This document shows positions 37,101-40,100 of a stretch of 64,000 bases of DNA, piece by piece (positions within the stretch are counted from its first letter, which is position 1; each line of letters begins with the position of its first letter). A program made the position numbers. The stretch comes from Escherichia coli (lineage in GTDB: Bacteria > Pseudomonadota > Gammaproteobacteria > Enterobacterales > Enterobacteriaceae). The stretch lies in assembly GCF_050320075.1 (NCBI RefSeq), contig NZ_CP190018.1; one strand, 5' to 3'.

Positions 37101-40100
37101 GCCTTGTCGCCGTCGATCTGAATACCGATGGACTCCGGATCGGTGACAGTCATGGTACCCTTGTTGTCCACCGTTGCGCTGTCACCGGTGATATCAATGC
37201 CGTGACCGCCGCCGCTGACATCCAGATCGCCGTCCTGGATAACTTTTCCGTTATTACCGTTGATTTCCGTGCCGGTGGAGTCTTTACCGTCAACGGTGGT
37301 TTTGCCGCTGTTGTTCGCCGTGGCGTCATCTCCGTTAATCTGCGTACCGGTGCCGCCGTTGCTGATGGAACTGTCGCCTTCGTTATTGACAACCGCCTTG
37401 TCGCCGTCGATCTGGATACCGATGGACTCCGGATCGGTAACGGTCATGGTGCCCTTGTTATCCACCGTCGCGCTGTCACCGGTGATATCAATGCCGTGGC
37501 CCCCGCCGCTGACATCCAGATCGCCGCCCTGAATCACTTTTCCGTTATTACCGTTGATTTCTGTACCGGTGGAATCTTTACCGTCAACGGTAGTTTTGCC
37601 GTTGTTGTTCGCCGTGGCGTCATCACCGTTAATCTGCGTACCGGTGCCGCCGTTGGTGATGGTGCTCTCGCCTTCGTTATTGACGATGGCCTTGTCGCCG
37701 TCGATCTGGATCCCCATGGACTCCGGATCGGTGACGGTCATGGTGCCCTTGTTGTCCACCGTTGCGCTGTCGCCGGTAATATCAATCCCGTGACCGCCAC
37801 CGCTGACATCCAGATCGCCATCCTGGATAACCTTCCCGTTATTACCGTTGATTTCTGTACCGGTGGAATCCTTGCCGTCAACGGTGGTTTTGCCGTTGTT
37901 ATTCGCCGTGGCATCATCATCGTTAATCTGTGTGCCGGTGCCACCATTGCTGATGGTGCTGTCGCCTTCGTTGTTAACAACCGCCTTGTCGCCGTCGATC
38001 TGAATACCGATGGACTCCGGATCGGTGACGGTCATGGTGCCCTTGTTATCCACCGTCGCGCTGTCGCCGGTGATATCAATGCCGTGACCGCCGCCGCTGA
38101 CATCCAGATCGCCGTCCTGGATAACTTTTCCGTTATTACCGTTGATTTCCGTGCCGGTGGAGTCTTTACCGTCAACGGTGGTTTTGCCATTGTTGTTTAC
38201 TGTGGCATTATCACCCGTTATAACAAGCTCACCGTTGTGATTATATCGCCACTTTGTTGTGCCATCTGCGCTCACACCTTCAAGGGCAACAGTATTATTC
38301 GCTTCATCAATCTGCCAAAGATTAATCGTTGCCTTACGACCACTGTTATCTTGCAGAGAAATAGTCCCGTCAGCATTCTCGGTATAAGTAAAAACTGAAT
38401 CGCGAATAGTTAACGTTTTTTCTGTTTTATCGAGAATAACGTCATTATTAAACGAAATCGGTTTGGGAGGTGTAGGCGTATCATCCGGAACGTCCGGTAT
38501 TATCTCATCTCCGCCAGGAGTTGGGGGCACTGGAGTGTCGTCTGAATCATCATCAGGGGGCGTCGGTGGGAGTGGAGAATTGTTGCGATGATGATGATCA
38601 TCATCGTCGTTTAGTTCCACTACGGCTAAGGTCGTGATTAACGCAGCAGCGCCTGTGGCAAGCCATGGCATCAGGTTTTGTTCGACTAAAGGGGTGCATT
38701 CAGAGGGTAAGCGTTTAAGCTCTTCCGGACTGAGTTTTCCTGGATCTGCCGGACAAGTCACATTAGTATTTTTCTTTTCACCTGTGGTGGTTTCTACCTC
38801 TGTGATATCTGCCGCCCAACCCTGACCACTCAGAGCTAATGCAATACAGGCCGACAATAAAGTTTTCCTTTGCATAATAAATCCTTCTGGCGAATATAAA
38901 GAAAGCCGGATGCACTAACCCGACCAATTAGTTATTTAAAACATTGAAGACATCCTATATTGCCAGTGGATTATTATCTAATCAAATATACTTTACGATA
39001 ATTCACAGTTATAATTCAGATGAATAAAAAAAGACCATGAAATATATGAATTGTGTATATTATACATATTATAAATTAAACCAAATTACCATTATAAATA
39101 ATCATATAATGAAAAAAACGGTATGATTTAATACTAAAATAAATAAAGCAGAGCTGAAACATAACTCTGCTTTATAATTAAAAGGACAAAATAATTTTAC
39201 ATCTGTTACTGTTTCGGTCGCAGATTCTCATCAAATACCAGGCGTTTCCTGCCAGGTTCAACTTCCCGCAATGGCTCGACTTGATGTAACGTCTGCTTAC
39301 AGCGTGTCACCAGCACCTGATACTCATGCGTGCCCTGCTTTTTCCATGCCAGTTCCTGCTCACTAAGTTCACGAATCGCTTTTGCCGGGCTGCCGACAAT
39401 CAGGTAATTAGCAGGCATTTCTGCTTTGGCTTTCACAAATGCGGAAGCGCCAACAATGCTGTTCTCGCCAATCACCGCACCGTCCATCACTACCGCGTTC
39501 ATACCCACTAATGCATTGCGGCGGATAATGCAGCCGTGAAGGATAGCGCTATGACCAATATGCCCATCTTCTTCCACGACAGTATCCTGATCGGGAAAAC
39601 CGTGCATAACGCAATTATCCTGAATGTTCGCGCCATCTTTCACCACGATACGACCGAAATCGCCACGCAGGCTGGCATTTGGCCCAACGTACACGCCCTT
39701 GCCGAGAATAACATCGCCGATCAATACCGCTGTCGGATGAACAAAACTCTCTTCTGGTACAACCGGAGTCAGACCGTCTATCTGGTAAATTGGCATAACG
39801 CCTCCTGTTCAATGTTCAAACCGCCAAAACGTTGAAAATACAGGCTTCCCGGCGCAGGCAGTTCACCGACCGAGGTTTCACCTTTTTCACTAACGAACGC
39901 TAAAGCAGCAGGCGCTACGCGCTGATAAATGTTGATACACAGCTGACGCGCCGTATGCCCTGCCCAGTGAGCCGGAAGCAACTCCTCCGGCAACAATGGG
40001 TCTTTAAGGACGACACGGCGATAAAAATGGATCAGTAAAAGCTGAATATGAAATGCACGCTCCGGGGTTAATTCGTCTGCCGCCTCTTTTAACAGCGGCA

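Follow-up and report, generated by a model that had tools for sequence, protein, structure and literature searches.

The AT-rich interval between paaY and ydbA in an Escherichia coli genome: a probable regulatory spacer of ydbA with a frameshifted open reading frame at the ynbG position

What function is served by the extremely AT-rich DNA that separates the paaY and ydbA genes of Escherichia coli, and does the short open reading frame (ORF) within it encode a protein? We addressed these questions in a stretch of 64,000 nucleotides (hereafter the window) from contig NZ_CP190018.1 of RefSeq assembly GCF_050320075.1, in which the paaY-ydbA intergenic region occupies positions 38876-39205 (330 bp) and ends flush with the ydbA start codon on one side and the paaY stop codon on the other. 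With a probability that we put at roughly 80%, this region is a regulatory spacer of ydbA, AT-rich and silenced in the manner of H-NS targets, in which three functional layers lie side by side. Next to paaY, transcription of paaXY on the minus strand would stop at a Rho-independent terminator. At the ydbA end, a sigma-70-like promoter, a leader of approximately 75 nt that carries a hairpin and a U tract, and a ribosome-binding site (RBS) would drive, and probably limit, the expression of ydbA. The middle appears to be a fast-evolving, promoter-rich AT spacer that most likely serves as a platform for H-NS nucleation and spreading and so keeps ydbA quiet. The 29-codon ORF is embedded in this middle part and is read from the other strand than ydbA. 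This reading builds on the anatomy of the locus, its identity with the K-12 locus, a comparison of alleles and the conservation of structure, and it takes H-NS occupancy from the K-12 literature; what we infer is which promoter serves ydbA, what the leader hairpin does, and that the ORF has no function.

The base composition of the region is conspicuous. Its GC content is 24.8%, as compared with 49.3% for the window, and falls to 19.5% in the central 200 bp. The region is the lowest-GC stretch of 330 bp in the 64 kb, and the sliding windows that are equally low amount to 0.02% and all overlap it. Five runs made up solely of A and T, each 12-15 nt in length, are present together with two A7 runs, and TANNNT sequences, which resemble -10 elements, occur at a density of 10.9 per 100 bp, against 2.3 across the window. 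A preliminary description of this DNA had singled out the AT-richness upstream of ydbA, and these values bear it out.

The same description had likened the region to the H-NS-silenced promoters of acquired adhesin genes, for which published K-12 data are informative. In a survey of that genome (Panyukov and Ozoline 2013, PMC3661553), the paaY/ydbA interval (1463061, 385 bp, in older coordinates) figures among 78 'promoter islands'. Potential start points are extremely dense in such islands, which are described as binding RNA polymerase and as yielding little transcript and short abortive transcripts. The survey marks the paaY/ydbA island as bound by H-NS in both the Kahramanoglou and the Oshima data and as overlapping a predicted genomic island, and the autotransporter loci ycgV and yfaL have islands in the same table. 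The analysed strain likewise shows an AT content far above background, dense promoter-like signals and a variably present gene. The likening to an H-NS-type promoter is thus supported both by the K-12 island listing and by the distribution of the ydbA segment among strains, described below. In a K-12 rpoZ mutant, the ydbA transcript is increased 7.7-fold (PMC5811629).

To which neighbour does the region belong? We compared 11 distinct alleles and counted their occurrence among 5,426 complete E. coli genomes. Positions 38700-39400 (701 bases) match the corresponding DNA of E. coli CFSAN061763 at 100% identity and that of K-12 at 95.2%. The K-12 allele (at least 99% identity) is carried by approximately 1,160 genomes, the allele of the analysed strain by approximately 140, and divergent alleles by approximately 850-1,000, whereas the whole region, along with ydbA, is missing from approximately 3,000; the 5' region of ydbA is present in 2417. 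In strains without ydbA, pdxI directly follows paaY, homology stops 1 base past the stop codon of paaY, and another terminator serves this gene. Where a strain lacks the paa cluster, the AT-rich segment is placed, hairpin included, between ydbL and ydbA. Given that the segment is absent where ydbA is absent, and is kept beside ydbL where the paa genes are absent, it is inherited with ydbA and not with paaY, and constitutes the ydbA upstream region. Together, ydbA and this region are present or absent in E. coli as one segment, whose junction at the paaY stop is clean. When the N-terminus of YdbA was used to search genome contigs for upstream regions in other species, a single E. coli locus was recovered.

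The alleles also diverge unevenly along the region. Over the central 151 nt, the analysed allele is 88% identical to that of K-12, and K-12 is 72-77% identical to the divergent alleles; over the 151 nt proximal to ydbA, identity to K-12 is 95% and to the divergent alleles 83-89%. Judged by these values, the centre is evolving faster than the flanks. In one strain (comparison locus L007), an IS1 element stands in place of the region from about position 39080 onward.

The first functional layer is an intrinsic terminator located 3' of paaY on the minus strand (39131..39175). It consists of a 13-bp stem (39175..39143) with a 7-nt loop, followed by the U-rich tail UUAUUUUAGU. The arms are perfectly complementary over 11 nt (39143-39153 and 39165-39175) and extend to 13 pairs, with TTATTTTAGT coming next on the minus strand, and the stem starts 31 nt past the paaY stop. 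The predicted fold has an energy of -16 kcal/mol (z = -2.4). Across eight alleles the stem positions are paired in 87.5% of the scored cells, as compared with 31-58% in slid controls, and three pairs have changed on both sides, all of them in one divergent allele; this allele is that of E. coli SCPM-O-B-8794, which also bears a 23-nt insertion in the ydbA leader. The alleles adjacent to ydbL carry several mismatches that weaken the stem. Because no U tract is present in the plus orientation, the hairpin should act on the paaY strand. The hairpin, the U tract and the compensatory changes support the paaY terminator that had been proposed near 39150-39180.

Inside paaY itself, the sequence TGGCATGGAAAAAGCA (39336-39351, minus strand) matches the intragenic sigma-54 site IS16 of K-12 paaY, a binding site that lies 464 nt upstream of ydbA and points toward it (PMC4591121). 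The base preceding TGGCATGGAAAAAGCA is C here and T in K-12, and the paaY terminator sits between the IS16 match and ydbA.

Conservation is concentrated beside ydbA. Seven blocks of at least 6 bases are invariant in all 11 alleles, namely 30 nt around the RBS, ACCAATT, TTAAAACAT, ATATTGCCAGT, AATCAAA, TATAAT and TATAATTAAA. The invariant 30 nt (38873-38902, minus strand) hold the RBS AGAAGGA (38888..38882) and the ydbA start codon (38875..38873), which reads CAT on the plus strand at 38873-38875. Farther upstream, AATCAAA and ATATTGCCAGT, when read on the minus strand, make up a predicted sigma-70 promoter for ydbA (38957..38985), in which the -35 element TTGATT (38985..38980) is separated by 17 bp from the extended -10 element TGgCAATAT (38965..38957). 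The region contains 31 weak promoter-like combinations, among which this one alone has all 12 hexamer positions invariant, and its spacer is 17 bp in every allele even though six spacer positions vary. Its matches to consensus are four of six at -35 and three of six at -10. This pattern of conservation argues for TTGATT-17-TGgCAATAT as the putative ydbA promoter, from which transcription would start near 38950. Two other candidates were rejected: a sigma-54 promoter at the conserved CTGGCAATAT block has no TTGC at the -12 position, and a promoter with TATATT (38898..38893) just before the RBS has no -35 element at 16-18 bp.

Between this predicted promoter and the RBS lies a stem-loop of the ydbA leader (38893..38925, minus strand), comprising an 8-bp stem (38925..38904) that is followed by UUUCUUUAUAU and lies 29 nt before the ydbA ATG. 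It was scored as a terminator-like match and resembles a terminator or an attenuator, which raises the question of whether it, and not H-NS, is the main control of ydbA, acting as a regulated attenuator or a second terminator (38925..38893) that blocks read-through and upstream-initiated transcription into the gene. In keeping with such a role are its position, the invariant block ATGTTTTAA immediately upstream, and the persistence of the stem, which is paired in 55 of 55 cells among seven distinct alleles despite three variable pairs and the 23-nt insertion that its loop takes in E. coli SCPM-O-B-8794 (comparison locus L009, about 2420-2445). Moreover, three G-U pairs would become C-A mismatches in a plus-strand transcript, and hence the structure fits the ydbA-sense RNA only. 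However, the stem is weak (-9.4 kcal/mol) and its z-score of -1.5 is unremarkable, the three variable pairs (GU/GC, UA/UG and CG/UG) have changed on one side only, and the shuffle control was uninformative. We regard attenuation as an unlikely substitute for H-NS in the control of ydbA, and continue to favour a silenced spacer in whose leader the hairpin may serve as an attenuator, a back-up terminator or a stabiliser.

Two small features of the leader can be noted. The 23 nt inserted in the loop form a small inverted repeat of their own (AATTGT...ACAATT). The ATGTTTTAA block (38936-38944, minus strand), located just upstream of the hairpin and invariant in 11 of 11 alleles, reads ATG TTT TAA. 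Both the analysed allele and K-12 have, in the frame of this block, an upstream ATG (MSSMF*) with AGGA ahead of it. This block could be a mini-ORF or simply the region where transcription starts.

A second promoter-like element faces away from ydbA, toward the ynbG side. This candidate divergent promoter, TATACT-17-TATAAT (38987..39015, plus strand), is the top-scoring of the candidates, with a perfect -10 at 39010-39015 and 10 of 12 positions invariant. Its existence allows the proposal that the plus-strand unit matters as an RNA or as an act of transcription, through a divergent transcript that is antisense to the 3' end of paaY or interferes by competition with the back-to-back ydbA promoter, and thereby tunes ydbA or paaXY. 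The two best-conserved promoter-like elements of the region indeed stand back to back with their -35 regions overlapping (38980-38992), TATAAT is invariant in all 11 alleles, even those that have no ORF, and promoter islands are described in the K-12 survey cited above (PMC3661553) as binding RNA polymerase and producing short abortive transcripts. Several observations speak against such a role, however. Conservation is at its lowest in the sequence downstream of TATAAT, the terminator hairpin lacks a U tract in this orientation, and an Rfam scan of positions 38000-40000 (E <= 1) returned no match. Those supplements of a K-12 3'-end map (PMC7815308) that were searched list no 3' ends near ynbG, ydbA or paaY, which is a weak negative. 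We consider a plus-strand RNA function to be quite unlikely, and the AT-rich spacer of ydbA remains our preferred interpretation of this DNA.

Does the ORF downstream of TATAAT encode a protein? It occupies positions 39037-39126 of the plus strand and spans 29 codons, exactly as previously described and with an identical translation, and it had been suggested to be either spurious or the equivalent of ynbG. A comparison with K-12 annotation, which had been proposed as a check, identifies ynbG (b4674, YP_002791240.1) as the sole annotated feature between paaY and ydbA in MG1655. K-12 ynbG (1465165-1465230) lies on the strand opposite to its neighbours and encodes the 21-residue protein MKYINCVYNINYKLKPHSHYK (WP_010723099.1), and its start codon maps exactly onto position 39037 of the window. 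By position and start codon, therefore, the ORF corresponds to ynbG. The encoded product is neither MKYINCVYNINYKLKPHSHYK nor a conservatively diverged version of it. Five substitutions fall in the first 14 codons (four non-synonymous and one synonymous) and leave 10 of 14 residues identical, and after codon 14 a 1-bp deletion (AAATT-AAACC) shifts the frame into an unrelated tail. The K-12 motif AGGTGA, 13 nt from the ATG, has become AGATGA, and just AAAGACC precedes the ATG at 39037, in agreement with the earlier impression that the ORF has no convincing RBS. RefSeq annotates the K-12 protein in K-12-like strains and places no annotation at the ORF position in CFSAN061763.

Neither the length nor the distribution of the ORF suggests a gene. 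In 2000 dinucleotide-preserving shuffles of the region, an ATG-initiated ORF of at least 29 codons arose in 53% and one of at least 21 codons in 82%, and hence its length is not above chance. The 21-residue ORF of K-12 is carried by three of the 11 alleles and the frameshifted form by one. In allele CX05, the K-12 ATG is out of frame and only an internal ATG is usable (18 residues). The remaining six lack a start codon there, with GCA, GCG or a deletion in its place, yet still keep a short open frame of approximately 18 codons; the ATG is thus absent from all six divergent alleles that were read, which stand for approximately 850-1,000 genomes. The K-12 ynbG protein sequence is found on at least 1000 contigs and the 29-residue sequence on a single contig, and an NCBIfam scan of both peptide versions (21 and 29 residues) gave no family match. 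The K, Y, I and N residues of these peptides are, to judge from base composition, what AT-rich DNA encodes by default. Lack of conservation across strains had been named at the outset, along with a lack of ribosome occupancy, as what would refute the ORF, and as a protein-coding gene the ORF is indeed largely not conserved. In the analysed strain it most likely does not function as a protein gene. Two minus-strand ORFs in the region were also set aside, one of 28 residues that starts in the terminator loop (39162..39076) and one of 24 residues (39067..38993), as both have the F/I/L/Y composition expected from a T-rich strand and are not conserved among the alleles.

Could this ORF nevertheless be a working allele of YnbG, translated from a short-leader TATAAT transcript and linked in function to paa or ydbA? 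The shared start position, the invariant TATAAT 22 nt upstream and the at least 1000 contigs that carry the K-12 protein are what would be expected of one, and a study by TraDIS, which sequences the sites of transposon insertions, found zero insertions in K-12 ynbG, which was accordingly called 'potentially essential' (PMC5821084). Against these observations stand the frameshift with its unrelated C-terminus, the 4:1 ratio of non-synonymous to synonymous changes before it, the loss of the Shine-Dalgarno (SD)-like motif of K-12, and a start codon that is absent in six of 11 alleles and displaced in another, as well as the chance-level length, the lack of a family match and the occurrence of the 29-residue sequence on one contig. 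The locus is naturally absent from more than half of the complete E. coli genomes (approximately 3,000 of 5,426), which argues that ynbG is not essential to the species. A simpler explanation for the missing insertions is that ynbG is a target of 66 bp that is H-NS-bound in K-12, which accounts for them equally well. We judge a working YnbG in this strain to be very unlikely, and retain the view that the ORF is most likely a non-functional variant within the ydbA spacer.

Two further reports concern ynbG. Mutation counts in this gene are elevated in mutation-accumulation lines (PMC9578424), which fits the A7 runs, at which the alleles differ by single-base indels. A 'constitutive ynbG promoter' recovered by in vitro selection (CTGACA-17-AATAAC, PMC3946193) was considered and dismissed, as it maps approximately 1 kb inside ydbA, in antisense orientation and outside the region.

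The allelic states at the ynbG site comprise open frames without a start, the K-12 form with both ATG and SD-like motif, and the form of the analysed strain, in which the ATG is retained, the frame is shifted and the SD-like motif is gone. Such a series is compatible with the tentative idea, possible but with the odds leaning against it, that ynbG is a young, lineage-restricted proto-gene born in an H-NS-bound AT-rich spacer. If this were true, the alleles of the locus would document in nature how a small bacterial ORF is born and decays, and the TraDIS call of 'potentially essential' would be shown to be an artefact.

Several points weigh against the interpretation of positions 38876-39205 as a silenced spacer of ydbA that holds no working gene. 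H-NS binding is known only for the K-12 region, which is 95% identical. A stricter promoter scan reported no minus-strand promoter in the region, and the -10 hexamer of the ydbA candidate, with its three matches, needs the extended TG. In the leader hairpin, no pair has changed on both sides, and the folding energy is ordinary. The invariant TATAAT ahead of the ORF points to transcription on this side, and the YnbG product of K-12 has reportedly been detected by epitope tagging. Given that ynbG has been accepted as a gene in K-12 since its publication in 2008, the 29-residue variant could still be made here.

With these caveats in mind, we propose that the ORF be labelled as a frameshifted ORF at the ynbG position; it should not be entered as a novel gene. 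Most E. coli genomes either lack ynbG or have it disrupted, which speaks against the essentiality that has been suggested for it in print. Beyond annotation hygiene the significance of this is small: the locus is ordinary and already documented, and our additions are the decay and poor conservation of the ORF together with pointers to a ydbA promoter and leader hairpin. The conserved promoter-like pair and the leader hairpin offer concrete targets for studying how an intact ydbA is switched on in wild strains.

The surrounding genes call for brief comment. The gene order on the minus strand is paaK, paaX, paaY, the AT-rich region and ydbA, the window being antiparallel to the K-12 map. The paaY gene runs from 39796 to 39206, with its stop codon at 39206-39208, and an intact ydbA, a gene resembling those of autotransporters and adhesins, runs from 38875 to 32384 and encodes 2163 residues. 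Within the ydbA gene of this strain there are long repeats that are nearly identical, whereas K-12 has a pseudogene put together from three pieces. The lengths of its orthologues appear to vary widely between strains, with annotated spans of roughly 5.9-8.6 kb, which suggests that repeat number varies. A 594-codon ORF (36614-38398, plus strand) lies antisense to the repeats and is most likely a by-product of repetitive, skewed coding sequence. In some K-12-like strains (comparison loci L006, 308-1616, and L014, 1-486), an IS3 element is located approximately 150 bp into ydbA, and the split gene leaves a 49-residue 'hypothetical protein' that corresponds to the signal-peptide end of ydbA. Several intact orthologues, autotransporter-like proteins of more than 2,000 residues, are named 'EntS/YbdA MFS transporter' by RefSeq (e.g. 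I6J89_RS14065 of NZ_CP069559.1, comparison locus L005, 1-1676), which looks like a propagated mix-up of YdbA and YbdA.

How, then, does this locus compare with systems already known? Relative to K-12 ynbG, the ORF shares the interval, the strand relative to its neighbours, the start position and 10 of its first 14 residues, within flanks that are 95% identical, but it differs in its 1-bp deletion, unrelated C-terminus, length of 29 codons and AGATGA motif, and RefSeq leaves it unannotated in strains with this allele. The terminator departs from typical Rho-independent terminators in having an AT-rich stem (four of 13 pairs are G-C), an interrupted tail (UUAUUUUAGU) and a place in a segment linked to ydbA; like them, it consists of a stem-loop and a U-rich tail after a stop codon, with a stem that is kept by compensatory changes. 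For the promoter islands of K-12, occupancy by H-NS and RNA polymerase was measured in a strain whose ydbA is broken by insertion sequences, whereas the ydbA considered here is intact. The two nonetheless correspond in occupying orthologous intervals and in combining extreme AT content and dense promoter-like motifs with a variably present gene.

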